Shown here: positions 11,169 to 29,173 of the stretch, piece by piece
Numbering within the stretch: the first letter of the stretch is position 1
Layout of the letters: every line of letters starts with the position of its first letter
From: Candidatus Buchananbacteria bacterium
Lineage (GTDB): Bacteria > Patescibacteriota > Patescibacteriia > 2-01-FULL-39-33
Reading direction: 5' to 3'
Length of the DNA stretch: 64,000 nt
Assembly: GCA_030650095.1 (NCBI GenBank)
Contig: JAUSEE010000033.1
Coordinates: 26,757 to 90,756, forward strand
Program-made: the position numbers and the translations under genes
The notes under the pieces: generated by a model
What the model saw: only the letters and a program-made list of their open reading frames with translations
Told to the model about the DNA's origin: nothing
Databases searched by the model: none

Positions 11169-12158
11169 ATGAAAAATAAAAGAGTTGAGAAACTTATCCG
11201 TGATTTATCAGCCGATTATTTTGTCTTTGCGCCTCAAAAATTAGGCGCTGATTTGGCTCCGGGCTATGAATACGGCATCAGCGAAGTTAAGGATATAAAT
11301 AATATAGATTGGTCGGGGCGGGTGCCTTATGGCAATTGGAAAGAAGTTTTACTGCCTCATCATGAGCGTCTTTTTGATCTTAAAAATGGAGAACTAATTA
11401 AAGCCAAGGCTAATAGTCCGTTAATCGCTTGTCTGGGCATGAATATTTTGGATTTAAAAGCCCTCACTCTTTTTGAACAGGTTTTTGCCAATGATGTTTA
11501 TTATCAGGAACGCCGGCGCAATCTTTTGATTATAGGTTATAGCACCGGCTTGCCTAATGATTATAAAAAGAATAAAGTTTTTTCCCACAATTACAAAGAG
11601 GATATTTTAGAGCATGTTGTTTTTGATATTTTCATAACCAGCCAAAGCAATGGGAAAATAGCTCTTTATTCCGGCTCGGAGAAAGGCCAAAAAATATTGG
11701 AAAAATACGGCCTGGGTGATTATCAGCATATAGAATTTTCCGGTCCAGTGGCTGAAAGCGGACCGGATAAAAGAATGGCGTCTATTGCCAAAAAAATGGA
11801 AAATTCTTTCAACCATCCGGTGTGGGACGATTTGAATAAAAGATGCATCGCCTGCAGCAAATGCACCATTGCTTGCCCGACTTGCTTTTGTTTTGATCTG
11901 GAAGACAGGAATGATCCGGCGGATAAATCACGCAGTCGCAAATGGAGCTCCTGCTTTAACAGCGATTTCACTTTGATTGCCGGCGGCCAAGATGATTTGG
12001 ATACGGTTAAAAAGAAAATATTTTTTTGGTATTTCCATAAATTTGTCAGAATACCCAAAGAGTATTCACTGCCCGGCTGCGTGGGTTGCAATCGTTGCAC
12101 CCTAGCCTGCCCGGTAGGAATTGACATCAATAAGACAATTCAATCTTTGATGAAATAA
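11169..12158 (+). CDS. [NiFe]-hydrogenase (group-3-like) beta subunit / AsrA-like 4Fe-4S protein
   Basis: 329 aa; two ferredoxin-type motifs CIACSKCTIACP and CVGCNRCTLACP; architecture of sulfhydrogenase HydB / anaerobic sulfite reductase AsrA. Confidence 0.7.
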   Translation: MKNKRVEKLIRDLSADYFVFAPQKLGADLAPGYEYGISEVKDINNIDWSGRVPYGNWKEVLLPHHERLFDLKNGELIKAKANSPLIACLGMNILDLKALTLFEQVFANDVYYQERRRNLLIIGYSTGLPNDYKKNKVFSHNYKEDILEHVVFDIFITSQSNGKIALYSGSEKGQKILEKYGLGDYQHIEFSGPVAESGPDKRMASIAKKMENSFNHPVWDDLNKRCIACSKCTIACPTCFCFDLEDRNDPADKSRSRKWSSCFNSDFTLIAGGQDDLDTVKKKIFFWYFHKFVRIPKEYSLPGCVGCNRCTLACPVGIDINKTIQSLMK

Positions 12159-12164
12159 ATATCC

Positions 12165-12986
12165 ATGTTTAACATCTACCAGCCGCAAAAAGCCAAAATT
12201 ATCAGCCTCAATACGGAATCAACCGATACCAAACTTTTTCGTTTAGCCTTAACTGACAAGAAAAATCAAAAAGAATTTAATTTTTTGCCCGGCCAATTTG
12301 TGCAAATCGGCTTGCCCGGCTGGGGCGAATGCCCGATTAGTTTCGCCTCTTCACCCCATCAGTCTGATAAATATTTTGAATTGGCCATCAGAAAAGTTGG
12401 CCAGTTAACAGGCCAGCTGTCAGAACTTAAAAAAGGCGATTTAGTTGATATCCGCGGCCCCTTTGGCAATGGCTTTGATGCTGATTTATTTAAGGACAAG
12501 CCCCTTGTTTTGGTGGGAGGCGGTTGCGGTTTTGTGCCATTACGACCCTTGATAATGGATTATTTGGCTGACAAAATGGAAAATACGGTTTTGCAGATAT
12601 TTTATGGCTGTAAAAATGAAGACACGCTTTTGTTTAAAAAAGAGCATGCCAGCTGGAATCGCCAAGCTGAATTGAATGTTATTTTGGAAAAGCCGTCGTC
12701 AAAATGGGCGGGTAAAAAGGGCTTGATAACCGATCTGTTTAAAAATAGAGTGATCACTTCCAATTCCATTGCTGTTTTGGTCGGACCGCCGTTAATGTAC
12801 CGCTTTGTCATTGCCGAACTGAAAAAAAGACAAATTACTGATGAGAATATTTATTTATCCCTGGAGAAAAAAATGTATTGCGGCGTCGGCGTTTGCCAGC
12901 ATTGCGCTATTGGGCCATATTACGTTTGCAAAGACGGGCCGGTTTTTAGATGGTCTGACATAAAAGACATTAACAATATTATTTAA
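12165..12986 (+). CDS. [NiFe]-hydrogenase gamma subunit / FAD-NAD(P)-binding oxidoreductase with C-terminal 2Fe-2S (HydG/AsrB/PyrK-like)
   Basis: 273 aa; FNR-like fold, GGGCGFVPLRP NAD-binding loop, C-terminal CGVGVCQHC...C cluster. 6 nt after the beta subunit. Confidence 0.7.
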   Translation: MFNIYQPQKAKIISLNTESTDTKLFRLALTDKKNQKEFNFLPGQFVQIGLPGWGECPISFASSPHQSDKYFELAIRKVGQLTGQLSELKKGDLVDIRGPFGNGFDADLFKDKPLVLVGGGCGFVPLRPLIMDYLADKMENTVLQIFYGCKNEDTLLFKKEHASWNRQAELNVILEKPSSKWAGKKGLITDLFKNRVITSNSIAVLVGPPLMYRFVIAELKKRQITDENIYLSLEKKMYCGVGVCQHCAIGPYYVCKDGPVFRWSDIKDINNII

Positions 12987-13015
12987 AATATTAATAATTA
13001 ATAACAATTAAAAGT

Positions 13016-13156
13016 ATGGTAGGAGCAGGACTAGTGGTTATAGGTATAATATTCCTATTGAAGAATCTGGGCATTATGCCGGATATTGCTTGGGACATCA
13101 TTTGGCCGATAATTCTGATAGTTATCGGTTTGACTATGATTTTTAAGAAGAAATAA
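13016..13156 (+). CDS. Small two-helix membrane protein (46 aa), tentative
   Basis: ORF below the 60-aa track cutoff: MVGAGLVVIGIIFLLKNLGI...WDIIWPIILIVIGLTMIFKKK. Fills the gap between the gamma subunit and hypC. Confidence 0.3.
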   Translation: MVGAGLVVIGIIFLLKNLGIMPDIAWDIIWPIILIVIGLTMIFKKK

Positions 13157-13159
13157 ATT

Positions 13160-13351
13160 ATGTGTTTGACAATTCCGCTGCAAATACGATCCATTGAAAA
13201 AACCATGGCTAATCTTTCTGATGGCCGTCAAGTCAGTTTGGCTTTGATAAAAAATCCCCAACCAGGGGATTGGGTTTTAACCAATGCTGATTTGGCTATT
13301 TCCAAAGTTTCAGAAGAAGAAGCCAAAGAAATTAACAACTATTTAAAATAA
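13160..13351 (+). CDS. hypC: Hydrogenase maturation factor HypC/HupF
   Basis: 63 aa; starts MCLTIP (HypC signature MC[LI][AG][IV]P with essential Cys2); length and GDWVL segment typical. Confidence 0.75.
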   Translation: MCLTIPLQIRSIEKTMANLSDGRQVSLALIKNPQPGDWVLTNADLAISKVSEEEAKEINNYLK

Positions 13352-13353
13352 AT

Positions 13354-14256
13354 ATGAGAAAAGGCATTTATCTGGTTTTAATCACGGCCGTGATTTCCGG
13401 CCTGTCAATTTTTTTTAATAAGTTTGCCTTAGAGGCTTTGGGTAAAAATGCTTACCAGTATACCACTTTAAAAAATATCATTCCGGCCGTTTTGTTATCA
13501 TTTCTAATTCTAACGCCGTTTATTTTTCCCAAGCTTAAAAAGTTAAATAAAGGCCAGTGGCTAAAATTATTTTTAATCGGCTTAATCGGCGGCAGTGTTC
13601 CGTTTTTATTATTTTTTAAGGGTATGAGCCTAACCTCGGCGGTTGGTGCTGCCTTTATCCATAAAACCCTTTTCATTTGGGTCGCCATACTGGCTTGGCC
13701 GCTGCTTAAAGAAAAACTGGGAAAGATACAGCTTCTGGCTCTTTTGATACTTGTTGGCAGTACTTTTATTTTCGGCGGATTTAAATATTTCAGCTGGGGG
13801 TATGCGCATAGCTTAATTTTAGCGGCCACTGTCTTGTGGGCGGTTGAAAGCATAATAGCTAAAATTATCCTGCGCGATCTTGATTATCTTTTAGTGGCTT
13901 GGGGACGGATGTTTTTTGGTTCGCTTATTTTAATCGGATTTTTAGTATTTACCAAAAATACCGGCGGCCTTTTGACAATTGATTTATCCCAATTTCTCTG
14001 GCTGGGTTTGGTAGGGCTATTTTTAACCGGTTATGTTATTAGCTGGTATAGCGCTCTGCAAAAATTGCCGGTAACGGTGGTGTCATCATTTTTAGTTTTG
14101 GCTTCGCCTCTAACCACCTTGTTGAATAATTTATTTATCACTCATCAATTTCCCAGCAAAGATATTTTAGGACTGGCAACTGTCCTGGTCGCTCTTATTT
14201 TATTATGGCAATTTAAACCGATAAAAAAATATGAATTCAATACCAAGTCAATTTGA
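13354..14256 (+). CDS. EamA/DMT-family transporter (10-TM permease)
   Basis: 300 aa, two tandem 5-TM EamA-like halves. Confidence 0.55.
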   Translation: MRKGIYLVLITAVISGLSIFFNKFALEALGKNAYQYTTLKNIIPAVLLSFLILTPFIFPKLKKLNKGQWLKLFLIGLIGGSVPFLLFFKGMSLTSAVGAAFIHKTLFIWVAILAWPLLKEKLGKIQLLALLILVGSTFIFGGFKYFSWGYAHSLILAATVLWAVESIIAKIILRDLDYLLVAWGRMFFGSLILIGFLVFTKNTGGLLTIDLSQFLWLGLVGLFLTGYVISWYSALQKLPVTVVSSFLVLASPLTTLLNNLFITHQFPSKDILGLATVLVALILLWQFKPIKKYEFNTKSI

Positions 14257-14995
14257 CGGCACAATTCTAGCCGCTCGCTACGCTTTTATGCCCAATAAAT
14301 TAAGGTATTGCGGCGGCGATAAAAACAGCGATATTTTTGATTATGTGACCCAAGATTCAAGCGACGGCGGCTTAAATGAACTGCTGAAGGAATTTGCCAC
14401 CATGTATCCGTATTTAAGATTGATTGCCGAGTCCAGTGGCATAATCAATCCTTTTGATTATAGAGTGGTCGAAGCTTATTGGCTGGGCAATGATCTTTTA
14501 AATAATGTGGATATGAAGAATTTTTATCGCTATATGATAGATGAACAAAAGTTAAAAAAAAGTTTCAAACCGAAATTACTTGATAAAGTTTTTGGCAAAA
14601 TTCCCTTGGGAGCCAAGCCGCACCATAGCTGGCATGTTTTAAATATCCCCAAGCGTACTGGCCATTACCCCGTTGAGCATACACTAGAAACTATGGATAA
14701 ATGCCGTATTAGCTGGGGCAAGATAAAAGAAATAAAATCCGATTCCGGTGATTTGACCACTAAGGCTATAGTTGAATACGAGCCGCTGGTTATTAAAGAA
14801 AACAGATTGGTTTTGGGCGATCTAATCGATAAAGAGGTTTGGCTGGGCTGGGACAAAAAAACATTTATCAATACTGCTAAGCCTGGTGATTTGGTTTCTA
14901 TCCATTGGGATTGGGTTTGTGATTATTTGACAGCCGGCCAATTTAATAATTTAAAAAAATGGACTCAGTATAATCTGAATTTAAGCAATCTGTAA
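14231..14995 (+). CDS. Hypothetical protein (254 aa)
   Basis: Overlaps the upstream gene by 26 nt; no recognisable motif; lies inside the hydrogenase neighbourhood. Confidence 0.45.
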   Translation: MNSIPSQFDGTILAARYAFMPNKLRYCGGDKNSDIFDYVTQDSSDGGLNELLKEFATMYPYLRLIAESSGIINPFDYRVVEAYWLGNDLLNNVDMKNFYRYMIDEQKLKKSFKPKLLDKVFGKIPLGAKPHHSWHVLNIPKRTGHYPVEHTLETMDKCRISWGKIKEIKSDSGDLTTKAIVEYEPLVIKENRLVLGDLIDKEVWLGWDKKTFINTAKPGDLVSIHWDWVCDYLTAGQFNNLKKWTQYNLNLSNL

Positions 14996-15049
14996 AAATG
15001 AACCCGACCCCGCTCTAAAGAGCGGGGTATTCGGGCAGCAACATTATAA
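14996..15049 (+). repeat. GC-rich repeat element, short copy (first hairpin + 3' tail only)
   Basis: aaatgaacccgaccccgctctaaagagcggggtattcgggcagcaacattataa equals copy 1 minus the internal segment bounded by the ggggtatYYgggc direct repeat. Immediately after the stop of the 14231..14995 CDS. Confidence 0.75.
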
Positions 15050-15053
15050 AAAA

Positions 15054-15075
15054 AGCTGCTATTTTTCTAGCAGCT
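15054..15075. terminator. Palindromic hairpin (agctgcta...tagcagct), probable bidirectional terminator
   Basis: 8-bp perfect stem flanked by A-run (5') and T-run (3'), between convergent genes. Confidence 0.4.
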
Positions 15076-15634
15076 ATTTGCTTGTTTTTTTGATGACGAT
15101 TTGATAGTGGTAATCAATGCCCGACCAAATACACACGAGCGATAATAATATTCCGCCTATCCAGTAGAAAAAGCCGTTTAAGAAATGAAATATTTCAAAG
15201 TTGCCGTTTTCCACCGGCATCAAAAAAATAAAAATACACATCAAAGGCAAGCTAACGGCTGTTTTGATTCTGCCTGATAGTTTGGCCGGAATCGGTTTAC
15301 TGGACACACTCCTTAAATGAGTTGAGGTGATATCTTTAAGAAATAGCAAGGCCACCGGGATAAAATGGATCATACTCATAGCCACTAGCGGCAAGTAAAG
15401 AGTTGTCAGCCACTTATCAGCCAAAGGATCATAGGTTTTTCCGAAATCGGAAATGCAATTGAATTTTCGAGCATACCAGCCGTCCAGACAATCAGTCAAA
15501 CAAACTACTAATACTAGAAATATGACCAAGAGATGTATTTTAGGCGATGTCTGGGCAAAATAAAGCAGTATTAAAAGGGGCGGGGTTAAAATTAACCGCG
15601 TTGTAGTTAAAATATTTGGTATCTGGTTTTTCAA
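15074..15634 (-). CDS. CDP-alcohol phosphatidyltransferase (PgsA-like)
   Basis: 186 aa; motif DCLDGWYARKFNCISDFGKTYDPLADK = D-x2-D-G-x2-A-R-x8-G-x3-D-x3-D. Confidence 0.8.
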   Translation of the reverse strand: MKNQIPNILTTTRLILTPPLLILLYFAQTSPKIHLLVIFLVLVVCLTDCLDGWYARKFNCISDFGKTYDPLADKWLTTLYLPLVAMSMIHFIPVALLFLKDITSTHLRSVSSKPIPAKLSGRIKTAVSLPLMCIFIFLMPVENGNFEIFHFLNGFFYWIGGILLSLVCIWSGIDYHYQIVIKKTSK

Positions 15635-15752
15635 AGTACCGTCTCCTATAGTGTGAAAAGCCTAGTTAATTTTATATACTTATTTGACGGATATGTCAAT
15701 TTAAGAAAAAAAGAAAAATCTGTTATAATAAGATAGTTTTATAACTATCCCA

Positions 15753-16565
15753 ATGTATCTGTTAAATATGATTAGAAACCGCCGAACTAAAAAGCCCAAA
15801 GTGGCCATTGTTTCTTTAACCTCCTGCGAGGGTTGCCAGTTTGTGATGCTGGATCAGGGGCAAAGGTTTTTGGATTGGCTAAAAAAAACCAATCTGGAAG
15901 AATTTCGGTTGGTAGAGGATGAGCCCATGACGGCCAAGCATTATGATATTTGTTTTATTGAGGGCAATCCGGTAACCAGAGACAATATCAAATTATTAAA
16001 ACACCTGAGAAAAACTTCTGATCTCTTGGTAGTGGTTGGCAATTGCGCGGCCTTGGGTGGTGTTTGGGAGGTAAAGAATTACCAGTCTAAGCAGAAAACC
16101 ATTAAACAAGTCTATAAAAAGTTAAAAGTAGAAAATCCCGACATCAAAGAAGTTAATAATTTTGTCAAAGTTGATTTCACTATTCCCACTTGCCCTATTG
16201 ACGGCGATGAATTTATGAGGATAGCCAATAACCTGATTGATGGCTTAGATCCTAAAATACCTCAAAATCCGGTTTGTTACGAGTGCCAGACCAGCGGTTA
16301 TGAATGCCTGCTCCTAAAAGGTGAAATATGCTTGGGCCCCATTACTTTGGCCGGTTGCAAAGCGGTTTGCTTAAAAAGCAAGCAGGCTTGCTGGGGTTGT
16401 CGTGGCTTGTTTGATAACGCCAAGGTTTTTAATTTTATGACTCATTTGCTTAATAATTTCCCGCGCGAGCAAGTTTACCGGGTTATGGAAGTATTCGGCG
16501 CCAAAGACACTATTATGGCAGAATTAGCCAGAGAGCAAAAAATAAAAATACCAATTAAAAAATAA
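15753..16565 (+). CDS. [NiFe]-hydrogenase small (delta) subunit
   Basis: 270 aa; proximal-cluster Cys motifs SLTSCEGCQ and VVGNCAALGG; further CxxC pairs in the C-terminal ferredoxin-like part. Confidence 0.8.
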   Translation: MYLLNMIRNRRTKKPKVAIVSLTSCEGCQFVMLDQGQRFLDWLKKTNLEEFRLVEDEPMTAKHYDICFIEGNPVTRDNIKLLKHLRKTSDLLVVVGNCAALGGVWEVKNYQSKQKTIKQVYKKLKVENPDIKEVNNFVKVDFTIPTCPIDGDEFMRIANNLIDGLDPKIPQNPVCYECQTSGYECLLLKGEICLGPITLAGCKAVCLKSKQACWGCRGLFDNAKVFNFMTHLLNNFPREQVYRVMEVFGAKDTIMAELAREQKIKIPIKK

Positions 16566-16721
16566 AATTATGTCTTTAATAAGATTTTTCAGAAGATTAA
16601 GCGGTCTAGTGCGTGGCAGTGCCATCATCCAAGCTCCGCCAACTCATGAGCGTTCACTGGCCGTAGCAGAGAAACCGGGACAAAAATTGCCGGAAAGCAA
16701 TGTGGTAAGGAAAAAAAAGGA

Positions 16722-17021
16722 TTGGCGTTTTTCCAAAGACGAATATTAATTAATTTTATAAATATGGGACCAGAATTATTAGAATCATTACCCGTGGATC
16801 AACTTGATTTAAAACATCACAACGGCTTACAGCTGGAATTAATGCATCAAATGATCGGCGAAAATCATTCTCGGCAGAAACAACAGGCTTGGGTTTTAAA
16901 ATACAGCCCAAAATTCAGAGAGTTAATCAACAACCCCGAGTATGATGAAATAAGAGCCCTGGCCTTAGGAGATGATTACAAGCAAGCAGCCGAACTTCTT
17001 CGCCCCCTTTTAGAAGAATAA
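16722..17021 (+). CDS. Hypothetical protein between hydrogenase small and large subunit genes
   Basis: 99-aa ORF (more likely start ATG 16764, 86 aa); helical, no motif. Confidence 0.3.
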   Translation: MAFFQRRILINFINMGPELLESLPVDQLDLKHHNGLQLELMHQMIGENHSRQKQQAWVLKYSPKFRELINNPEYDEIRALALGDDYKQAAELLRPLLEE

Positions 17022-17031
17022 AAATCAAGAA

Positions 17032-18333
17032 ATGAAAATTCAAATAAATCATATCGGCAAAATGGAGGGTCATGCTGATTTTGTGGCCGAGATATTAAGA
17101 GGCGATGTTAAATCAGCTAAATTGATTACCACCGAGGGTGCCAGGCTTATCGAGGGGATTTTAATCGGCCGACATTTTAGCGAAGCTCCGATTATTACTT
17201 CCAGAATCTGCGGTATTTGCCCGGTAGTCCATAAATTGTCTTCTATTAAAGCCATTGAAAATGCTTTCGGCTTAAAGCCGTCTCTTCAAGTCGTTAAGCT
17301 GAGGAAAATCATGAACTTATCGCAGTTGATCCATAGTCATGCGCTTCATTTGTTTTTTTTGTCATTGCCTGATTTTTTTGCCATTGAAAATGATTTGAAT
17401 TTCATAAAAAAATATAAAAAGGAAACCGAATATGCCATCAGAGTAAGGCAATGGGCTCTTAAAATAATAGAAACCATCGGCGGTCGAGCCGTGCATCCTA
17501 TTGCTTGCGAAGTGGGTGGTTTTAAAGTCTTGCCAGCTAAAAATGAATTAGTAAATTTACTTAATAATTATGAGAGTGTGTTAAAAGATGCTTTGGGGTT
17601 GGTTAATCTGGTTTTGAAAATAAAATTGCCTAAATTCAGCCGGCCTACGACTTTTGTCAGTTTAACTAACAAAGATGAATACGCTTATTATAGCGGTGAT
17701 ATTAAAGTAACCAGGCCGGACGGATCGGTAAAACACATTAAAGATTCTGATTACACCAAAAATATAAAAGAAATAGAAGAACCCTATCGAGCCGCCAAAT
17801 CGGCCACGCTAAATGGCGAGCCATTTATGGTTGGCGCTATTGCTAGAATTAATAACAATCACACCCAACTCAATCATTTAGCCAAGGGAATTTTAAAAAG
17901 CTTGAAATGGCAGTTTCCGCAATTGAATAGTTTTGAGAATATAACCGCCCAGGCCATTGAAATTGTCCACGCTTTGGAAGAGATAAACAGCTTGATAAAA
18001 GATTTGTCTAGTGATTATAATGAAAAGGAAAAAAGTTTATCAGCTGGCTTGGGAGTGATTGCCGATTCCAATCCTTTAAGTAAAGAAACCATTGGCATTG
18101 ATGCCATTGAAGCTCCGCGAGGCACCTTGTATCATTACTATAAGATTGATAAAAACGGCTATATAACCGATTGCAATATAATTACTCCCACCGTTTGTTA
18201 TCTTAAGAATATTGAAGAAGATGTTAAGGCCTACATACCGGATTTAAGCCAGTTGAGCGCTAAAAAACGAACCATTAAAATACGAGGCCTAATCAGGGCT
18301 TATGACCCTTGTATTGCCTGCGCCACCCATTAA
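17032..18333 (+). CDS. [NiFe]-hydrogenase large (alpha) subunit
   Basis: 433 aa; N-terminal Ni-binding motif RICGICPVVH (R-x-C-G-x-C-x3-H) and C-terminal DPCIACATH (D-P-C-x2-C-x2-H). Protein ends immediately after the His. Confidence 0.9.
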   Translation: MKIQINHIGKMEGHADFVAEILRGDVKSAKLITTEGARLIEGILIGRHFSEAPIITSRICGICPVVHKLSSIKAIENAFGLKPSLQVVKLRKIMNLSQLIHSHALHLFFLSLPDFFAIENDLNFIKKYKKETEYAIRVRQWALKIIETIGGRAVHPIACEVGGFKVLPAKNELVNLLNNYESVLKDALGLVNLVLKIKLPKFSRPTTFVSLTNKDEYAYYSGDIKVTRPDGSVKHIKDSDYTKNIKEIEEPYRAAKSATLNGEPFMVGAIARINNNHTQLNHLAKGILKSLKWQFPQLNSFENITAQAIEIVHALEEINSLIKDLSSDYNEKEKSLSAGLGVIADSNPLSKETIGIDAIEAPRGTLYHYYKIDKNGYITDCNIITPTVCYLKNIEEDVKAYIPDLSQLSAKKRTIKIRGLIRAYDPCIACATH

Positions 18334-18336
18334 TTC

Positions 18337-19500
18337 ATGAAAAATTTTGAAACAGGAGTAGAAAAAATAGAACCAAGAGAACTAGATGCCGAAGAGAAAA
18401 AACAATTGGGCCAAGTTTGGTCGCAGGTAATTTTAGGCCGCAGTGTTAAGCCAGAGAAGATAGAGGAAATGTCTAATGATGAACTTAAAGATTGGCTGTC
18501 GTCATCGCTTATGTCAGAAATCAGAATTTTAGCTGATGAGTGGGGCATTGCGCCTGATCAAAAATTAATTGAAGAAACCAAGGAAGATATTGAGGCGGCA
18601 GAAAAATCTAAGAGGCAGATGGCTTATATTCAAAAGTGTTTGGAAAATATTAATGAATTTGCCGAGCAAGATAGGGAAGAAAAAAGACAAAGAAGCCAAC
18701 ACTGGGATTCCTGGCCAGAAACCATGAGAGAAAATAAAGATTTTAATTGCGTGGGTGCTTCCATGCTTGGAGCTGACTTGCTTGATAGAGCTGAAATAGA
18801 AAATTATTATGGCAATCCATCCGGCCATATTATGAATGTGGTTAAATTGGCCGATGGGCGATTGGTTTATGCTGATTTTAGAAACGATCTTGTAACTGAA
18901 ATTAATCCGGAGGAAGTAGAAGTAGCGGGAATAAGAACTTTAAAAATTGATAATGATCTAATTGATTATCAATTAATTCCAGTAGTTGATAAAAATGGTT
19001 TGGCCGAAGCGGCTCTGGGCAATTTAAGTTCGCTTATCAAAGAAGCCAGTGAGAGCGATGTTTCTAACTTGAATCCGCATGAAAAAGAAGCTAGAAGGGT
19101 GGCCCAACAACACCAAAACCTTATTGAAGATGTAAGTGTCTATGATATCTATCATACTGTTTTTTCCGACAACATGTCTTTTCATAGTTCACTGGAAATG
19201 CAGGCCGAGGCGGAGAGAGTCCAATTAATCTATGATTTTGAAGATTCTTTAAAAGAATTGACAGCGGAAATAATAAATAGCCTTGGCCAAAAAGAATCTT
19301 TAAAATTAATGCTGGATAATGTTGATCAAATAGAAGAGTATCTGTCTGGAGCGGGGGAATTATCAAGCTTGCCTGATTTTTTAGGTGAAATTTTTAAAAA
19401 GGTTAAAGAAGCTTTGGCCGAATTGGCGCAAAAAGATGAAAAACTAGCCCTTAGAATGCAAAGTAAAATAATAGGGCGCATTAAAATAAATAATAAATAA
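18337..19500 (+). CDS. Hypothetical acidic protein (387 aa)
   Basis: Starts 4 nt after the large-subunit stop; Glu/Asp-rich helical N-terminus; no motif. Confidence 0.45.
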   Translation: MKNFETGVEKIEPRELDAEEKKQLGQVWSQVILGRSVKPEKIEEMSNDELKDWLSSSLMSEIRILADEWGIAPDQKLIEETKEDIEAAEKSKRQMAYIQKCLENINEFAEQDREEKRQRSQHWDSWPETMRENKDFNCVGASMLGADLLDRAEIENYYGNPSGHIMNVVKLADGRLVYADFRNDLVTEINPEEVEVAGIRTLKIDNDLIDYQLIPVVDKNGLAEAALGNLSSLIKEASESDVSNLNPHEKEARRVAQQHQNLIEDVSVYDIYHTVFSDNMSFHSSLEMQAEAERVQLIYDFEDSLKELTAEIINSLGQKESLKLMLDNVDQIEEYLSGAGELSSLPDFLGEIFKKVKEALAELAQKDEKLALRMQSKIIGRIKINNK

Positions 19501-19504
19501 TTTT

Positions 19505-19762
19505 ATGCACGATTTTCATTTGGCCGATCAGATTTATAAAACAATCATGGACTACGGCCAGAAAAACGGCTTAAAAAAAATAACTAAAGCCGAGATAGAA
19601 CTGGGTTCACTAGTAGAGCATGGAGAAGAAATTTTACCAGCCAATTTGGATTTTAATATTAAAATGCTGGCCGAGGGGGGCATAGCTGATGGTTTGGAAA
19701 TAAGTATCAAGAGAACGGTTGGCAATTCTTGGACGCTAAAAAACATAGAAGGAGACAAATAA
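19505..19762 (+). CDS. HypA-like protein, N-terminal (Ni-binding) domain only
   Basis: 85 aa; MHDFHLADQIYKTIMDYGQKNGLKKITKAEIELGSLVEH parallels HypA N-terminus (MHE motif and helix). The CxxC...CxxC zinc-finger half is absent. Confidence 0.45.
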   Translation: MHDFHLADQIYKTIMDYGQKNGLKKITKAEIELGSLVEHGEEILPANLDFNIKMLAEGGIADGLEISIKRTVGNSWTLKNIEGDK

Positions 19763-19766: not shown

Positions 19767-20945
19767 GTGAAAATAAAATCCCTAAAAGAATTAAAAAACA
19801 TAAAAGGCCAGAGAATTCTGTTGCGGGTTGATTTTAATGTGCCTATTTCCAGTGGCGGTAAAATTGACAAGAGCGAAGATTACCGCATCGTTCAAACACT
19901 GCCCACTATAAAATATCTGATTAAAAATAAAGCTAAAATAATCATAATGGCGCATCTTGGCCGCCCCGACGGCAAGGTGGTTGAAGCTCTAAGATTAGAT
20001 CCAGTGGCTGTGAGGCTATCGCACTTGCTTAAAAAAGGTATTTATAAGAGCCAGGATATTTTAGGCCAAGAAGTAGAAAAACATATAAGTGAAATGAAAG
20101 ACGGTGATATTTTAATGTTAGAAAATGTCCGTTTTGACAAGCGCGAAGAAAAGGGAGATAAAAAATTTGCTCAAGAGCTGGCCAAGTTAGGCGACATTTA
20201 TATCAATGATGCTTTTGCCGTTTGCCATCGCGATCAAGCATCGGTTTCTACTATTGCCGATTATTTGCCATCGTATGCCGGTTTTTTGCTGGAGGATGAA
20301 TTGAATAATTTAAGCGCTGTTATAAATAAGCCTATTAAACCGCTAACCGTTATAATCGGCGGAGCCAAAATATCAACTAAAATACAATTAATAAAAAGGT
20401 TTTTGACTCTGGCCGACAGCGTTCTGTTGGGCGGAGCCCTGGCTAATACTGTTTTAAATGTCATGGGTGTTACAACCGGCAAATCGCTGGTTGAGCCAAA
20501 GATGTACCCGATCATCAAAAAAATAAAATTAACCGATAATAAATTGCGTGTCCCGGTTGACGGTGTCATGGCTAAAAATTATGAGGCTAAAATTGGCCGG
20601 CTGGATGCCTTAGCCGATGTTAGACCAGAGGAGTTGATTTTAGACATTGGACCAGATACAATAAAGCTGTACGAGAAAATCATAAAATCGTCTAAAATGG
20701 TGGTTTGGAATGGGCCAATGGGATTGATTGAAACGCCTTTTTTCGCCAAAGGAACAGAGGACTTGGTTAAAATCCTGGCCAAATCCAAGGCTTATACGGT
20801 AGCCGGCGGCGGTGAAAGCGTGCAGGTAATTCGCCGTCTGGGCCTGGAAAAAAAGTTTAATTTTGTTTCCACCGGCGGAGGAGCCATGCTGGAATTTTTA
20901 GAGGGCAAAAAGTTGCCCGGTTTGAAAAAAATATTAATTAAATAA
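19767..20945 (+). CDS. pgk: Phosphoglycerate kinase
   Basis: 392 aa, GTG start; N-terminal RVDFNVP and full PGK architecture. Confidence 0.9.
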   Translation: MKIKSLKELKNIKGQRILLRVDFNVPISSGGKIDKSEDYRIVQTLPTIKYLIKNKAKIIIMAHLGRPDGKVVEALRLDPVAVRLSHLLKKGIYKSQDILGQEVEKHISEMKDGDILMLENVRFDKREEKGDKKFAQELAKLGDIYINDAFAVCHRDQASVSTIADYLPSYAGFLLEDELNNLSAVINKPIKPLTVIIGGAKISTKIQLIKRFLTLADSVLLGGALANTVLNVMGVTTGKSLVEPKMYPIIKKIKLTDNKLRVPVDGVMAKNYEAKIGRLDALADVRPEELILDIGPDTIKLYEKIIKSSKMVVWNGPMGLIETPFFAKGTEDLVKILAKSKAYTVAGGGESVQVIRRLGLEKKFNFVSTGGGAMLEFLEGKKLPGLKKILIK

Positions 20946-21935
20946 GTGAATATTATGAGAAGTAAAATTATTGTTTTCGCACCTTTGTTTTTGCTTTTAG
21001 CTCTTTTTTTGTTTCCCAGCATTAGCTTAGCGGCTGATGCTGACCTATCTGTTGAGAGCGTTTCTTTTTCACCGGCCCAGCCGCTTGTAAATCAAACGAC
21101 TAAAATAATAGTCAGAATAAAATATACGGGCAGTTCTTCTTTGACCAGTAATTCATCTGTAAACAGCTTGGCTTTTGCTCATAATGATTTCCAGCAGATT
21201 ACCAGTCCAGAGACCGGCGCATCTGTTAACCCCTCCAGTTCCAATCCGCTTTATTCGGGCACTTATTTCACTTATACTGTGGTGGGCAAATTTATTAATG
21301 CTGGCACAAAAACATTATCTCTCAAAATTGACTGGGCTAATAGTTTAGATGAATCCAATGAAAATAATAATCTGATTATGCCTAAGGTTGATGTTTTAAA
21401 ATCAGGCGACTTGATTAAATTGCCCAATGACTCGGCCATTTATTTGATTAAAGCTGATAATCAGAAGCACTTATTTGTTAACGGCCCGACTTTTTGGAGT
21501 TACCATCGTGGCAATTGGGGCGCTATAAAATTAGACGGCTCTCTGGTTTATATCCAACAAATTTCTCAAACAGCCTTTGATTCCATTGCTACCGGCAGCA
21601 ATATAGGCGTTAAGTCCGGTTCTAGGCTGATTAAATTCCAGAACAGTTCCAGGATTTATACTGTTTTCGGGCTGTCAAAGATTAAATTAATATCCGATCA
21701 AACGGCTCTAAGCTTGTACGGTTCAAAATGGAAAGATAAGGTTGTAACCATTCAAAATGGTTTTGAAGCTGATTACATCAGAGCTGATCAGGATTTCTTT
21801 GATAGCGACAGCGATGGCCTGTCCGATGAAGACGAGCGCAATGTTTATTATACCAATCCTTATAATAACGATAGCGATGGCGATAGTTACAAAGATGGTT
21901 CTGAAGTGTTTTTTGACTATAGCCCAAGTATATAA
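20946..21935 (+). CDS. Secreted protein with CARDB-like N-domain and C-terminal Asp-rich (TSP3-like Ca-binding) repeats
   Basis: 329 aa; signal peptide; DSDSDGLSDEDE and NNDSDGDSYKDGSE repeats at the C-terminus. Confidence 0.45.
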   Translation: MNIMRSKIIVFAPLFLLLALFLFPSISLAADADLSVESVSFSPAQPLVNQTTKIIVRIKYTGSSSLTSNSSVNSLAFAHNDFQQITSPETGASVNPSSSNPLYSGTYFTYTVVGKFINAGTKTLSLKIDWANSLDESNENNNLIMPKVDVLKSGDLIKLPNDSAIYLIKADNQKHLFVNGPTFWSYHRGNWGAIKLDGSLVYIQQISQTAFDSIATGSNIGVKSGSRLIKFQNSSRIYTVFGLSKIKLISDQTALSLYGSKWKDKVVTIQNGFEADYIRADQDFFDSDSDGLSDEDERNVYYTNPYNNDSDGDSYKDGSEVFFDYSPSI

Positions 21936-21959
21936 AATTAAATAATAATCATAAAATTT

Positions 21960-22754
21960 ATGCATGAAGACTGTTGCCAGGGTGAGCGTCATGCCCTGAA
22001 AAAAATATTAATGCCGATTGTCGGCATTGTCTTGGCTCTTTTGGGAGTTTATCTAATCTCTTTAACCAGGAATTCGCTTAAAAATTACGATTATATCGGC
22101 AAATCACCGGAATTCAAGAATATTATAACAGTTGATGGCACAGGCAAGGTAACCGCCAAATCAGATATTGCCATTATCAATGCCGGAGTTTTGACTGAAA
22201 AAGTTACAGTCGCTGCCGCTCAAAAGGAAAACACCGAAAAAATGAATGCGATTGTTAAATCACTTAAAGATGACTTTAAGATTGATGGCAACGATATCAA
22301 AACCAGCCAATACAATATTTATCCCCGCTATGATTGGACTAATGGCTCGCAAAGAATCATTGGTTATAGCGTGAGCCAATCGGTGGAAATAAGAGTGCGG
22401 GATTTTGATAAGATTGGCAATATTTTAGCCAAAGCCGCCGAACTGGGCACTAACACCTTAAACGGACCAACCTTTACTATTGATGATCCGGAAGTCTATA
22501 AGGCACAAGCCAGGGAAAAGGCTATTGCCCAAGCTAAAGAAAAAGCCAAAGTCTTGGCTGATCAAGTTGGCATTAAATTGGGAAACATTATAAACTTTTC
22601 TGAAAATTTCGGTTATCCTATTGCAAACACTTACAGTAACGATATGGCGTTTGGATTGGGCGGCGGAACAGAAAAATCCTTGCCGGCTCCAGATATCCAA
22701 GCGGGCAGTGAAGAAATCAATGTTACCATCAATATTAGTTATGAAATAAGGTAA
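21960..22754 (+). CDS. SIMPL/DUF541-family periplasmic protein
   Basis: 264 aa; N-terminal TM anchor; two-lobe pattern with a conserved coiled stretch AQAREKAIAQAKEKAKVLADQVG typical of DUF541. Confidence 0.6.
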   Translation: MHEDCCQGERHALKKILMPIVGIVLALLGVYLISLTRNSLKNYDYIGKSPEFKNIITVDGTGKVTAKSDIAIINAGVLTEKVTVAAAQKENTEKMNAIVKSLKDDFKIDGNDIKTSQYNIYPRYDWTNGSQRIIGYSVSQSVEIRVRDFDKIGNILAKAAELGTNTLNGPTFTIDDPEVYKAQAREKAIAQAKEKAKVLADQVGIKLGNIINFSENFGYPIANTYSNDMAFGLGGGTEKSLPAPDIQAGSEEINVTINISYEIR

Positions 22755-22783
22755 CAAATAGGTTTTATCAAAATAAAAGAAAT

Positions 22784-23398
22784 ATGATCTTAAAACCAAA
22801 AAGTATTGCATTGGTAGTCGCCGTAGTTGTAATTTTGATTGTCGGTGGAGTTTATGTTTGGCAGAAATTTAATAATTCAATTAAAGTATCACATCCAGCG
22901 GTAGTTGTTGGTGATAAATATATTCTTGATAAAGTAGGTAGTAATTATAATAAACTTTTTGAATACCAAGAAGGGTATTGTGGTTTAAATCCAAACTCAA
23001 ATCAGAAAGAATGTACCCTTATTTATGATTTTAAAGGAGTGGATGAAGACTTTGATATTCAATTTAGTATAACTGAAAATTATGAGGTAACAACTCAGGC
23101 TAATTATATTAAAATACCAAACTGCTTATCCTATCCAGAGAAATGCACTATTATACCCAAGTCAAAAGCAATAAAGATTGCTCAAGAGAATAAATTTGAG
23201 GGAGATGAAAAATTGTGGACGGTTAATTTTGATTGGGATGCACATTACAATACGGATGCTTATGTTTGGCAAATTTTTGTCACGACAGGACCCGGTCCAT
23301 GCGGTAAAAATGGACAAAATGTCGGTAAAGTAATGATAATTAGTGCGTATTCTGGAAAAGTTTTAGGTATAGAGAATACCGGCGGCGCCTGTTATTAA
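22784..23398 (+). CDS. Membrane-anchored secreted protein, paralog 1 of 3 (MILKPK family)
   Basis: 204 aa; N-terminal MILKPKSIALVVAVVVILIVGGVYVWQK is identical at DNA level (100 nt including 5'UTR) to paralog 2; variable Cys-containing ectodomain. Confidence 0.6.
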   Translation: MILKPKSIALVVAVVVILIVGGVYVWQKFNNSIKVSHPAVVVGDKYILDKVGSNYNKLFEYQEGYCGLNPNSNQKECTLIYDFKGVDEDFDIQFSITENYEVTTQANYIKIPNCLSYPEKCTIIPKSKAIKIAQENKFEGDEKLWTVNFDWDAHYNTDAYVWQIFVTTGPGPCGKNGQNVGKVMIISAYSGKVLGIENTGGACY

Positions 23399-23418
23399 TA
23401 AATCAAAATAAAAGAAAT

Positions 23419-23802
23419 ATGATCTTAAAACCAAAAAGTATTGCATTGGTAGTCGCCGTAGTTGTAATTTTGATTGTCGGTGGAGTTTATGTTTGGCAGA
23501 AGTCAACTCTTTCAGATCTGAAAGGGGCAAAAGAATTAGATAATGAAAGAGCTGAATGTGAGCTAAAAGGAGGCAAATGGATTAATCATGGAGATTTGTA
23601 TCCACCAAAACCGGTCTGTAATTTGCCAACAGCTGATGCCGGGAAAAAATGCACTGATTCTGATCAATGTGAAAGTTATTGTCAGGCACCAAAGAATTCT
23701 AAAATCGGAGTAAACACTACCGGTACATGTTATGAATGGAAACTTGCAGAATGTATGCAAGAAGTCAAAGACGGTAAAGCTGAAGCCACATGGTGTTATT
23801 AG
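23419..23802 (+). CDS. Membrane-anchored Cys-rich secreted protein, paralog 2 of 3
   Basis: 127 aa; same signal-anchor; 8 Cys in an ~95-aa ectodomain; ends WCY. Confidence 0.6.
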   Translation: MILKPKSIALVVAVVVILIVGGVYVWQKSTLSDLKGAKELDNERAECELKGGKWINHGDLYPPKPVCNLPTADAGKKCTDSDQCESYCQAPKNSKIGVNTTGTCYEWKLAECMQEVKDGKAEATWCY

Positions 23803-23850
23803 GGTATGAATTATTAATTAAAAACTGATTAAAAATTAATAATTGTTTCT

Positions 23851-24348
23851 ATGATCTTAAAACCAAAAGTATTGATTGCAGTAGTCATTATTATTTTGTT
23901 GTTAGTAGGAGGAATATTTCTTTATCGCCAGTACTCGATAAATACCGTGGCGGGAAATTATAATTTAGATGAGATGGAATGTAAATCAAATGGCTGGAAG
24001 TGGGTATCTAAATCAAGTGAATGTAATACGCCAAGAAGTAAACTTTGTCAGGAAAATTCAGATGGTACGCGTGATTGTATCAAAGATTGTGTCGAAGTAA
24101 AAAATTATGACGGCTGTAACAATTGCCAAGTGAAGGACAAAAAATTGGTAAATTGCACTTCTTGGGATTGCGCGCTTTACCAGGATCCTATATGCATTAA
24201 AAATAGACCAATAACTGAATCTTATTGTGCTGGATTTAACTATCAAAACTGCCCAAATGGTTGTGAGACGGGACCGTCGTGTTCAATATGTACGGATATT
24301 GGATGTCATATAGAAGGGTACCGAAATAATGCTGAATATTGGAAATAA
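23851..24348 (+). CDS. Membrane-anchored Cys-rich secreted protein, paralog 3 of 3
   Basis: 165 aa; MILKPKVLIAVVIIILLLVGG anchor (first 18 nt identical); >20 Cys. Confidence 0.6.
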   Translation: MILKPKVLIAVVIIILLLVGGIFLYRQYSINTVAGNYNLDEMECKSNGWKWVSKSSECNTPRSKLCQENSDGTRDCIKDCVEVKNYDGCNNCQVKDKKLVNCTSWDCALYQDPICIKNRPITESYCAGFNYQNCPNGCETGPSCSICTDIGCHIEGYRNNAEYWK

Positions 24349-25717: not shown

Positions 25718-25730
25718 TTTTAATTAAAAA

Positions 25731-29169: not shown

Positions 29170-29173
29170 AAAT

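Follow-up and report, generated by a model that had tools for sequence, protein, structure and literature searches.

How is the metal centre of a [NiFe]-hydrogenase assembled in a genome-reduced bacterium whose large subunit ends at its last metal-binding motif and whose HypA has no zinc domain? The question is raised by a 64-kb stretch of DNA from Candidatus Buchananbacteria, a member of the Patescibacteria (CPR), here called the window. All features described below lie on the forward strand unless specified otherwise. Pfam and NCBIfam profile searches located every gene listed in the original prediction; for gyrB, dnaK, the pair of iPGM-like ORFs and two short ORFs at the 3' end, assignment relied on inspection or synteny rather than on the Pfam scan. 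Related loci were covered over 10 kb on each side.

The hydrogenase and its locus

The window encodes a group-3b-type, four-subunit cytoplasmic [NiFe]-hydrogenase, as had been predicted. The beta subunit (11169–12158) is AsrA/ShyB-like, contains two 4Fe-4S CxxCxxCxxxCP motifs and matches Pfam Fer4_22 (6.7e-27) and NCBIfam AsrA (1e-29) and ShyB (8e-29). The gamma subunit (12165–12986) combines FNR-type FAD/NAD(P) domains with a 2Fe-2S domain (Pfam FAD_binding_6, NAD_binding_1 and DHODB_Fe-S_bind) and belongs with the NCBIfam families 'hydrogenase subunit gamma' (2e-69) and ShyC (8e-61). The small (delta) subunit of 270 residues (15753–16565) matches PF01058 (1.5e-20), ShyD (2e-44) and HydD (2e-42), and the large subunit of 433 residues (17032–18333) matches PF00374 (3e-41) and sulfhydrogenase HydA (1.3e-70). 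The nearest solved structures of the large subunit are Thermococcus kodakarensis HyhL (5yxy; 2e-60) and Pyrococcus furiosus sulfhydrogenase I. Both archaeal enzymes (9e1j, 9e15, 9nez and 5yxy) consist of the same four subunits with an AsrA-like beta and an AsrB-like gamma subunit, and their large subunits, the best NCBIfam and PDB matches, align with the window protein from end to end. However, the archaeal large subunits extend four residues beyond the final histidine (His424 of 428), whereas the window enzyme has none.

By its sequence, the window enzyme is the Patescibacteria 'hyd1' type of group-3b hydrogenase, with which it shares clade and architecture (Jaffe et al. 2020, BMC Biol, PMC7304191). 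Homology and gene context suggest that electron transfer between NAD(P)H and H2 is its most likely activity, possibly with polysulfide as a further electron partner. The position of its genes inside a lower-glycolysis cluster makes H2 the probable outlet for fermentative reducing power. For the CPR hydrogenases in general, we infer activity, cofactor content and nickel delivery alike.

The original prediction drew attention to the separation of the beta and gamma genes from the small and large subunit genes. This split is present but not peculiar, given that the published CPR hyd1 loci include some whose beta and gamma genes lie apart from small and large, with a hypC-like family in the vicinity (Jaffe et al. 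2020, PMC7304191). The split results from the insertion of accessory genes between gamma and small, an arrangement that synteny shows to be preserved across relatives, and the beta–gamma pair itself occurs in 11 of 19 distinct CPR loci. Together with one unrelated convergent gene, these additions apparently divide the locus into two transcription units. The convergent gene encodes a pgsA-like CDP-alcohol phosphatidyltransferase (15074–15634, reverse strand; PF01066, 4.2e-26); it is missing from the gamma–small slot of L002, L004 and L006 and is an interposed gene outside the hydrogenase system. Between it and the DUF6390 gene, the last of the accessory genes, lie two hairpins (15001–15075); one of them, a terminator-like stem-loop at 15054–15075 detected on both strands, marks a bidirectional terminator-like site. 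A promoter-like site (TTAAGA-17-TATAAT with an upstream TG; 15701–15729), which is a consensus match only, ends 24 nt 5' of the small-subunit gene and is consistent with a second transcription unit. The repeat element that had been reported in this gap was not recovered: only chance AT-rich matches occur between 12900 and 17100.

Other slots of the locus carry variable cargo. The small–large spacer (16570–17021) contains ORFs of 59 and 99 residues without a family match in the NCBIfam search; of the relatives, only the closest, L001 and L008, also have the 99-residue ORF, and unrelated genes fill the slot in other genomes. The large-subunit gene is followed by an acidic protein of 387 residues (18337–19500) without a Pfam or NCBIfam match, which is found only in L001, from the same organism; relatives carry unrelated small genes in this slot or leave it empty. 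The gamma–small cargo also varies among relatives, including L002, L004 and L006, and L002 has a CbiM-type metal transporter there. The framework is nevertheless stable. The order beta-gamma-[accessory]-small-large-hypA-pgk-enolase is preserved in L002, L004–L006, L008–L011, L020 and L021, and the order hypA-pgk-SIMPL-enolase-iPGM-iPGM in L002, L004 and L006; in the window, phosphoglycerate kinase (PF00162) lies at 19767–20945 and enolase at 24446–25717.

A tail-less large subunit and a one-domain HypA

The large subunit contains both canonical motifs that had been noted, RxCGxCx3H as RICGICPVVH and DPCxxCxxH as DPCIACATH, and the stop codon directly follows the terminal histidine. The predicted absence of a protease-cleaved tail extends to the entire clade. 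Not one of the 118 full-length close homologues or of the 22 CPR loci has any tail, whereas 64 of 65 non-CPR 3b loci encode 5–24 extra C-terminal residues, usually with a HycI-type protease gene nearby. That gene accompanies 64 of 87 tail-bearing loci and none of 35 tail-less loci (Fisher p = 2e-15), although such tests overstate independence because the tail-less clade is probably the product of one evolutionary event. No maturation endopeptidase gene was found among the window ORFs with Pfam or with phmmer searches of the six-frame ORFs of the 64 kb using HycI, again as predicted. By comparison across loci, and as far as the genes tell, the whole Patescibacteria clade has lost the 5–24-residue C-terminal peptide together with the neighbouring HycI-type protease gene, and translation yields the large subunit at its mature length; a proteolytic check after nickel insertion would therefore be absent. 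Large subunits that terminate at the last metal-binding motif or close to it, and that mature without an endopeptidase, are known from groups 2b, 2d, 4c and 4e, including the regulatory hydrogenase, CooH and Ech (reviewed in PMC12134894). These groups are sensory or membrane-bound and energy-converting, whereas the window enzyme is a cytoplasmic 3b hydrogenase. Group 3b is not among the published extension-less groups, and the loss described here concerns one clade inside 3b.

The gene at 19505–19762 encodes a cysteine-free protein of 85 residues that starts with MHD, hereafter HypA-dZn. The protein had been described as a HypA nickel domain whose zinc module was replaced by a short tail. Its relationship to HypA stands: positions 1–68 of the 112-position PF01155 profile are matched, although the score of 27.4 bits falls just below the gathering score of 28.9; the family profile matches T. 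kodakarensis HypA at 4e-10; and the AF2 model (pLDDT 88.9) retrieves T. kodakarensis HypA (3a43 and 5yxy) as top Foldseek matches with a TM score of 0.84. The replacement tail does not stand. According to the model, the chain skips the zinc domain between the final two strands yet retains the last beta-strand of the nickel domain, indicating internal excision. The streamlined or atypical maturation that had been proposed is partly supported, in the loss of the tail, the protease gene and the zinc module.

HypA-dZn shares with HypA/HybF (T. kodakarensis 3a43, H. pylori 6g81) a Met-His start, the alpha/beta fold of the nickel domain and a gene that adjoins the large-subunit gene. In contrast to HypA/HybF, it begins with MHD instead of MHE, lacks the zinc domain with its two CxxC pairs and contains a four-residue insertion with E38-H39, a lineage-specific, invariant loop. 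The family comprises at least 127 clusters of 82–102 residues, nearly all of 83–85; L33, G34, E38, H39 and W76 are among its invariant residues, and conservation reaches at least 90% at M1, H2 and D3. HypA-dZn occurs in 18 of 19 distinct CPR loci, and its presence follows the state of the large subunit. Tail-less large subunits accompany cysteine-less HypA in 29 cases and tailed ones accompany CxxC-bearing HypA in 12, with two exceptions, one of which is a spurious large-subunit fragment. Zinc-less HypA is not confined to this lineage, as it turns up once in an Acidobacteriota locus (L069) and once on a high-GC metagenome contig (L152). A gene for the partner protein HypB was found neither in the window nor in any of the 19 distinct CPR loci. 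The hydrogenase section of the study that described CPR hyd1 is silent on the C-terminus, HypA and DUF6390, and the word 'maturation' is absent from that paper (Jaffe et al. 2020, PMC7304191).

HypC*, the EamA permease and DUF6390

The most unusual parts of the region are a HypC without His51 that is paired with a DUF6390 protein, and an EamA permease between them. HypC* (13160–13351; 63 residues) is a member of PF01455 (5.3e-17; TIGR00074, 9e-16) that starts with MCLTIP and keeps the N-terminal cysteine of HypC/HybG/HupF, but it carries asparagine at the position of their His51. HypC* is strongly conserved in the alignment. His51 is kept in 16 of 16 HypC proteins encoded beside HypD, in 8 of 56 beside DUF6390 and in none of three radical-SAM fusions. 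Directly 5' of hypC lies a gene for a LiaF/LiaI-type transmembrane peptide of 46 residues (13016–13156; Pfam LiaI-LiaF-like_TM1, 6.8e-10), which is also upstream of hypC in L004–L006. The gene for the EamA/DMT-family permease (13354–14256; PF00892, 3.6e-32) starts 3 nt past hypC and shares its last 26 nt with the DUF6390 gene.

What is the protein at 14231–14995, formerly regarded as hypothetical? It is a member of Pfam DUF6390 (PF19927; 5.8e-55), a family of 1037 representative clusters, and its AF2 model (pLDDT 94.3) consists of a helical N-domain and a C-terminal HypC-like OB domain. In hhalign, residues 157–240 align with HypC at a probability of 95.9% (E 5.7e-9), placing C158 on HypC Cys2 and H225 on HypC His51. 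As judged by this alignment, the C-terminal domain of DUF6390 is a HypC homologue that retains the Cys/His pair, with an internal cysteine where that of HypC is N-terminal. C27, H132, C158, H225 and W226 are invariant in the family, and H135 is at least 90% conserved. Comparison with HypD revealed no similarity. Towards its C-terminal end, the HypD alignment conserves the columns of a four-Cys [4Fe-4S] cluster, none of which has a counterpart in DUF6390.

DUF6390-anchored metagenome loci of at least 8 kb contain EamA in 26 of 27 cases, HypC in 18 and [NiFe] subunit genes in 21, and looser neighbour clustering places a HypC-family ORF in 77 of 92 DUF6390 loci. This tight hypC–DUF6390 adjacency mirrors the usual hypC–hypD adjacency of the HypC–HypD scaffold. 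One representative, P0244, is an EamA–DUF6390 fusion that adjoins the [NiFe] large subunit of a hyd2-type hydrogenase. In several others DUF6390 is fused to HTH domains, an arrangement equally compatible with a sensor and with a carrier. High-GC bacteria, too, encode DUF6390, there beside hypA, hypB and large subunits of 650 residues. The HypC*/DUF6390/EamA module is previously undescribed, and we found no paper naming DUF6390 or the HypC–radical-SAM fusion. The His51-less HypC, the HypC-like domain of DUF6390 and the linkage of DUF6390, EamA and HypC to [NiFe] genes go beyond the original prediction.

Assembly of the metal centre

The absence of hypB, hypD, hypE and hypF from the window, as predicted, was borne out both by the Pfam scan of its ORFs and when E. 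coli Hyp proteins served as phmmer queries against all six-frame ORFs of the 64 kb. Moranbacteria-type Patescibacteria encode hypC-hypD-hypE and a short hypF beside the same kind of tail-less enzyme. In the CPR loci with this canonical set (L012, L013, L016 and L170), the genes adjoin the enzyme and DUF6390 is absent. The placement of hypD, hypE and hypF elsewhere in the genome is an assumption here, because the Moranbacteria genes adjoin their enzyme. Of the 120 sequences most closely related to a CPR HypD, none is named Buchananbacteria or lies on a long contig bearing a window-type hydrogenase, a result that weighs little because the list stops at 62% identity. In the sister lineages L004–L006, HypC at the same position is fused to a HydE-like radical-SAM enzyme, which scores 267 bits against the HydE equivalog cut-off of 254.6 and shares the CxxxCxxC motif and BATS domain of this [FeFe] maturase. 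Unlike HydE, the protein is fused to a [NiFe]-type chaperone in a [NiFe] locus and has no HydF or HydG nearby. The window lacks this fusion, and no radical-SAM gene is present among its ORFs scanned with Pfam.

In the route that we propose, the large subunit would be synthesized at mature length with neither tail nor protease step, and nickel would most likely be handed over by HypA-dZn, cut to its nickel-binding domain alone. The Fe(CN)2CO group would most likely pass through the HypC*/DUF6390/EamA module, acting as a hydrogenase-specific carrier and insertion pair, and cyanide and CO would be synthesized by the products of hypD, hypE and hypF genes located outside the window. This combined account of a hyd1 3b enzyme with shortened maturation, the HypC*/DUF6390/EamA carrier and distant hypD/E/F is, as a whole, moderately probable. 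Weighing against it are the internal position of the cysteine in the HypC-like domain of DUF6390, the HTH fusions, which would suit a sensor equally, and the failure to find hypD, hypE or hypF in the window or in 26 DUF6390 loci of at least 15 kb.

A more radical reading, which we consider rather unlikely, is that the module stands in for HypD, and perhaps for HypE and HypF too, as the HypC–HydE-like fusion would in the sister lineages; if so, the iron-carbonyl-cyanide moiety is built or imported without canonical HypCDEF. Favouring this reading, hypD, hypE and hypF are absent both from the window and from 26 DUF6390 loci of at least 15 kb, compared with hypD in 14 of 65 non-CPR 3b loci anchored on the large subunit, and CPR with adjacent hypCDE and hypF lack DUF6390. 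The frequent loss of His51 from DUF6390-linked HypC, the conserved Cys and His residues of DUF6390 (the invariant pair of its HypC-like domain, and C27, H132 and H135 in the other domain), the HydE-level score of the radical-SAM fusion and the empty literature point the same way. However, HypC, D, E and F are required by every [NiFe]-hydrogenase studied to date (PMC12134894), and the module resembles no carbamoyl transferase, dehydratase or HydG-type CO/CN lyase. Moreover, the loci represent 10 kb on each side and not whole genomes, the high-GC bacteria with DUF6390 likely possess a full Hyp set, and some DUF6390-linked HypC proteins keep His51. It is improbable that EamA and DUF6390 form a transporter/regulator pair, for example in nickel or metabolite homeostasis, with no role in cofactor assembly. 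The fusions to HTH DNA-binding domains and once to EamA, the CbiM-type transporter of L002 and the variable cargo of this slot would suit such a pair, but the C-terminal domain of DUF6390 is a HypC homologue with both iron-ligand positions kept, a HypC gene is usually adjacent, and the matching loss of His51 in HypC looks like partner co-evolution rather than hitch-hiking.

The missing tail, the missing zinc domain and the altered HypC could also be steps of gene loss in a decaying or non-catalytic relic, given that CPR genomes are reduced and that CPR Ehr-type group-4 relatives have lost metal-binding cysteines (Jaffe et al. 2020, PMC7304191). This is very improbable: the four active-site Cys motifs do not vary across 16 aligned sequences with identities as low as 53%, RxCGxCxxxH occurs in 119 and DPCxxCxxH in 118 of 120 close homologues, HypA-dZn and HypC* are themselves strongly conserved, and gene order is stable over many lineages. 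The earlier caveat that a frameshift, an assembly error or gene calling produced the missing extension and the short HypA has a negligible chance of being correct and is refuted by the end point shared among 118 independent protein clusters and 22 loci that come from different studies, by the near-uniform length of the 127 short-HypA clusters and by a HypA model that folds confidently as a complete domain. The proposed route, with its tail-less large subunit, one-domain HypA and HypC*/DUF6390/EamA carrier, would show how far [NiFe] metal-centre assembly can be simplified or rewired in ultra-small Patescibacteria.

Class and layout of the hydrogenase locus

Comparison of the four predicted subunits with known families identifies the window enzyme as a group-3b-type [NiFe]-hydrogenase. 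The large subunit carries the motifs RICGICPVVH and DPCIACATH, of the N-terminal RxCGxCxxxH and C-terminal DPCxxCxxH types, respectively, and both are invariant in the alignment. We assign the enzyme to group 3b because the large subunit best matches the sulfhydrogenase alpha models HydA (1.3e-70) and ShyA (3.8e-66), ahead of VhuA and FrhA, and because its top PDB matches are T. kodakarensis HyhL (5yxy) and P. furiosus SHI. The small, beta and gamma subunits match the corresponding delta, beta and gamma sulfhydrogenase models, and the AsrA-like (beta) and AsrB-like (gamma) diaphorase subunits of a heterotetramer are both encoded. The hyd1 clade of CPR bacteria (Patescibacteria) likewise falls as 3b-related in the published tree (Jaffe 2020, PMC7304191).

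ORF listing and family scans recovered every gene named in the original prediction at its position. The beta (11169-12158, + strand) and gamma (12165-12986, +) genes are followed by a 46-aa LiaF-type membrane peptide and hypC (13160-13351, +). An EamA permease gene lies between hypC and the gene for a 254-aa protein of the Pfam family DUF6390, with a gap of 2 nt between hypC and eamA and an overlap of 26 nt between eamA and the DUF6390 gene. A convergent, pgsA-like CDP-alcohol phosphatidyltransferase gene, whose presence on the opposite strand is specific to the window lineage, also belongs to this gap, in which the predicted repeat element was not found between gamma and small. Then come the small (15753-16565, +) and large (17032-18333, +) subunit genes, an acidic 387-aa protein without a family match (18337-19500), the 85-aa HypA-like gene (19505-19762, +) and, 3' of it, phosphoglycerate kinase from 19767 onward. 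The window is AT-rich (GC 0.36-0.44) and coding is nearly all on the + strand. The 85-aa protein is 100% identical to the Q7K65_02855 product of a Candidatus Buchananbacteria MAG, and the large-subunit homologues bear the names Patescibacteria, Buchananbacteria or Parcubacteria.

The beta/gamma pair, with both diaphorase genes present, is separated from small/large by 2.7 kb, as predicted. This split arrangement is real, and relatives share the order beta-gamma-[accessory genes]-small-[variable]-large-[variable]-hypA-pgk-SIMPL-enolase-iPGM-iPGM, but it is not new. The split and the nearby hypC are known features of the clade, because both were described for hyd1, in which beta/gamma are at times not directly 5' of small and a hypC-like family is close by (Jaffe et al. 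2020, PMC7304191). The locus seems to be read as two transcription units, given the terminator-like hairpins at 15001-15075 and the promoter-like site at 15701-15729. Neither the 387-aa protein nor the ORFs that separate the small and large subunit genes are conserved accessory genes; they are lineage-specific fillers of variable slots. The 387-aa protein was seen elsewhere only in L001, a locus of the same organism, and the slot between large and hypA holds small methyltransferase-like genes or a 23S_rRNA_IVP gene in relatives, or is empty. In one relative, L002, a CbiM-type metal (Ni/Co) uptake gene and a 132-aa gene of no named family lie between gamma and hypC (L002:4950-6036), and a flavin reductase gene directly precedes the small subunit.

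Gene order across relatives places the hydrogenase locus in conserved synteny with glycolysis genes, and the enzyme is probably active, venting glycolytic reducing power as H2. In the window, the neighbouring lower-glycolysis genes (19767-30757) comprise pgk, enolase (24446-25717) and two tandem ORFs (27541-29169 and 29174-30757) that are assigned as cofactor-independent phosphoglycerate mutase paralogues by synteny with L002, L004 and L006. In the loci that carry hypCDE and a short hypF, here called Moranbacteria-type, TIM, FBA and GAPDH genes stand beside the enzyme in place of this set.

The C-terminal peptide, its protease and HypA

[NiFe]-hydrogenase maturation is regarded as a fixed pathway of six proteins, HypA-F, that closes with a nickel-dependent proteolytic check. 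The short C-terminal peptide cleaved by a HycI/FrxA-type protease, which is typical of group 3b without formally defining it, is not in the window enzyme: as predicted, the stop codon stands straight after DPCIACATH. The same terminal His is the last residue in each of the 118 close homologues (52-100% identity) whose sequence extends to the motif. A survey of eighty loci around more distant relatives, taken from species-representative genomes, gives a tail of zero residues in 22 of 22 Patescibacteria loci, the window counted (39-100% identity). Among 65 non-CPR 3b loci (DPANN, Bathyarchaeia, Actinomycetota, Planctomycetota, Acidobacteriota and others), 64 have 5-24 residues past the His, with nine typical (FLKLxIERx). 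A frameshift or assembly error as the cause of the missing tail is excluded by the concordant ends of the 118 homologues and the 22 CPR loci.

The absence of a maturation endopeptidase gene also held: an E. coli HycI query found no match in the window. HycI-type proteases, collected by iterative search after one neighbour had been recognised by Pfam, are encoded in 64 of 87 tail-bearing loci versus none of 35 tail-less loci (Fisher p = 2e-15). As the tail-less clade is probably monophyletic, the counts stem from a single event or a handful, not from numerous separate ones. These comparisons indicate that the clade lost the C-terminal peptide along with the neighbouring protease gene. Extension-less [NiFe] enzymes are listed only for groups 2b, 2d, 4c and 4e (review PMC12134894). 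The window enzyme shares this property with those groups but not their family, its best matches being 3b, and the tail-less clade extends a known phenomenon to group 3b.

HypA appears here as a conserved one-domain protein. The 85-aa protein scores 27.4 bits against a PF01155 gathering threshold of 28.9 and covers profile positions 1-68 of 112. Its family, HypA-dZn, comprises at least 127 clusters, nearly all of 83-85 aa, with L33, G34, E38, H39, N47, N51, W76 and L78 invariant. Where HypA has the nickel-binding start Met-His-Glu, these proteins start with MHD; M1, H2, D3 and H5 are shared by at least 90% of the members. Cys is absent from the 85-aa protein and from 36 aligned family members, and the two-CxxC zinc domain is missing. 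The sole PDB match of the family profile is T. kodakarensis HypA (4e-10). An AlphaFold (AF2) model (pLDDT 88.9) has the topology helix-strand-helix-strand-strand, and its significant Foldseek matches are all HypA structures (E 1.6e-6, TM 0.84), with an alignment spanning the whole 118-residue chain. The model thus retains the predicted fold of the HypA nickel-binding domain. The original prediction of a HypA N-domain without its zinc module is borne out, but not the view that a tail replaced the module; the model topology and the Foldseek alignment show that the zinc domain was excised between the last two strands, with the final strand of the nickel domain kept. The invariant E38-H39 lies in a four-residue insertion that sets the family apart from T. 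kodakarensis HypA, and this loop may supply a nickel ligand. A truncated pseudogene is excluded by the 127 conserved clusters and the confident, complete fold. We infer that the short HypA delivers nickel without HypB.

HypA-dZn occurs in 18 of 19 distinct CPR loci and had no match outside Patescibacteria in the loci L023-L087, which were anchored on the large subunit. Over all fetched loci, 29 pairings are of a tail-less large subunit with a Cys-less HypA and 12 of a tailed subunit with a CxxC HypA; of the two exceptions, one is an Acidobacteriota locus whose Cys-less HypA is independent, and the other is a spurious fragment. Zinc-less HypA is not unique to CPR, given single Cys-less genes in L069 (Acidobacteriota) and L152 (a high-GC contig). 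These independent HypA-like genes outside Patescibacteria (L069:10181-11020 and L152:4848-5159) encode proteins of about 90 aa with an MHE start, and one of them adjoins an Acidobacteriota 3b large subunit that keeps a 9-residue tail.

HypC, DUF6390 and HydE-like fusions

The window HypC is a clear family member (PF01455, 5.3e-17; TIGR00074, 57.5 bits against a cut-off of 48) that starts with MCLTIP. It keeps the N-terminal Cys and has Asn at the position of His51, the second iron-ligand position of HypC. The residue at this position varies with the neighbouring gene in the fetched loci: His is found in 16 of 16 HypC proteins beside hypD versus 8 of 56 beside DUF6390, where N, Q, Y, D, R or L otherwise occurs. 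No hypD was found in the 64-kb window or in the loci of the closest relatives. The pattern marks a distinct HypC subtype tied to DUF6390 and EamA.

What kind of protein is DUF6390? The window protein matches PF19927 at 5.8e-55 over profile positions 4-238 of 244 and belongs to a family of 1037 representative clusters in which C27, F55, G86, H132, C158, H225 and W226 are invariant. The predicted structure (pLDDT 94.3) consists of a helical domain, a beta domain and a terminal helix, and comparison with the PDB yields weak OB-fold matches only. Profile-profile comparison aligns residues 157-240 with HypC (probability 95.9%, E 5.7e-9) such that C158 meets HypC Cys2 and H225 meets HypC His51, both invariant in DUF6390. 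DUF6390 thus contains a HypC-like domain as judged by this alignment. It is not a divergent HypD (hhalign probability 0.1%). The His-less HypC and DUF6390 probably work as a pair that carries or inserts the iron moiety.

Eighty metagenome loci were anchored on DUF6390, and linkage was counted in the 27 of at least 8 kb. EamA is present in 26 of them, HypC in 18, [NiFe] large or small subunit genes in 21 and hypD in none. From all sources, 26 DUF6390 loci reach 15 kb or more, and none of them has hypD, against 14 of 65 non-CPR 3b loci anchored on the large subunit. The partner enzymes vary: some are 3b-like with tails of 7-9 residues, some have 650-aa large subunits encoded in DNA of GC about 0.7, and one has a large subunit of 500 aa with a tail of 28 residues. 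An EamA-DUF6390 fusion adjoins a large subunit of hyd2 type and a small subunit of 168 aa. Several high-GC organisms encode DUF6390 with an N-terminal HTH (clusters P0252, P0256, P0257, P0286 and P0305), XRE-, PadR-, GntR- or ArsR-like by eye, which hints that the same domain is used for ligand or metal sensing.

In three relatives with 67-72% large-subunit identity, HypC is fused to a radical-SAM/BATS enzyme 3' of the LiaF-type peptide (L004:7936-9201, L005:7936-9201 and L006:5175-6455; about 421-426 aa). The L005 fusion scores 267.1 bits against the HydE equivalog TIGR03956 (cut-off 254.6), and the CxxxCxxC motif reads CKNDCLYC. HydE is an [FeFe]-hydrogenase maturase. The fusion occupies the place in these [NiFe] loci that holds hypC-eamA-DUF6390 in the window, EamA and DUF6390 are absent from the three loci, and the HypC part has Thr at the His51 position in all three. 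No HydE-like radical-SAM gene was found in the window.

Cofactor assembly and its implications

The prediction that hypB, hypD, hypE and hypF are missing from the window agrees with our searches, in which the E. coli HypB, D, E and F queries had no match there; together with HycI, they had none in six closely related loci either. Pfam scans of the window ORFs, which left out two iPGM-like ORFs, gyrB, dnaK and two short 3'-end ORFs assigned by eye or synteny, revealed housekeeping genes only (cell wall, glycolysis, chaperones, MreBCD, glycosyltransferases) and no further maturation genes. Among the other window genes are three in tandem (22784-24348; 204, 127 and 165 aa) with a near-identical N-terminal signal/anchor, MILKPK...VVAVVVILIVGGVYVWQK, followed by differing Cys-rich sequences without a Pfam match. 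Two MreB paralogues lie at 36125-37132 and 45761-46798, the second followed by mreC, mreD and a PBP2-type transpeptidase gene. An ankyrin-repeat protein (50839-51573) and a short prolyl-tRNA synthetase (44534-45760, 408 aa) are unrelated to the hydrogenase finding.

How, then, would the CN and CO ligands be supplied? The conventional answer, hypD, hypE and hypF elsewhere in the genome, is reasonably probable. Patescibacteria as such do possess these genes: Moranbacteria-type loci (L012, L013, L016 and L170) encode a His51 HypC, HypD, HypE and a short HypF of Kae1-like domains only, adjacent to small, tail-less large, short HypA and GAPDH genes, with beta/gamma not near the enzyme. The short HypF is about 385-420 aa long (L016:7842-9056, L013:7482-8843 and L170:11994-13151, all on the - strand), and Pfam detects no acylphosphatase, zinc-finger or YrdC domain in those of L016 and L170. 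A CPR HypD search returned at least 120 matches (down to 62% identity), and all those listed are of the Moranbacteria/Parcubacteria type; none of the matches listed (62% identity or more) is on the long contigs carrying window-type loci. That DUF6390 or the HydE-like fusion provides a route independent of HypD seems unlikely. In such a route, DUF6390, with its HypC-like Cys/His domain and its Cys/His-bearing helical domain, would act as a scaffold together with the His-less HypC and the DMT permease, and the HypC-HydE-like radical-SAM fusion would do the scaffold's job in sister lineages. Its general form, which we hold to be improbable, is that window-type Patescibacteria and other organisms with the module, among them some DPANN archaea and Dehalococcoidia, are without HypD, HypE and HypF, and would build or salvage Fe(CN)2CO via the new DUF6390 scaffold or, in sister lineages, the HypC-HydE-like fusion. 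If true, the [NiFe] cofactor would have a second, HypD-independent origin, and this would link its assembly mechanistically to the maturation of [FeFe]-hydrogenases.

Neither the class of the hydrogenase nor its split layout is new, and the main value of the locus is in its maturation genes, more than in the split emphasized originally. The lack of both tail and protease within group 3b appears to be undescribed, as do the family of zinc-less HypA proteins, the HypC without His51, the DUF6390/EamA module and the HypC-HydE-like fusions; nothing was found in the open-access literature on CPR hyp genes, a HypC-HydE fusion, DUF6390 or zinc-less HypA. With tail and protease both gone, a whole group-3b clade is without the proteolytic check, and a HypA cut to its nickel domain, combined with the lost peptide, is a natural experiment on the roles of the zinc domain and the C-terminal peptide. 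In several phyla, the genes of DUF6390, a widespread and undescribed family, are linked to those for a His-less HypC, a permease and [NiFe]-hydrogenases. It is an open question in the field where CO comes from in the absence of oxygen (review PMC12134894), and DUF6390 and the HypC-HydE-like fusions are concrete, clonable candidates for unexplained steps of cofactor assembly. These genes are relevant to heterologous minimal hydrogenases and to how episymbiotic, genome-reduced bacteria retain a complex metalloenzyme.
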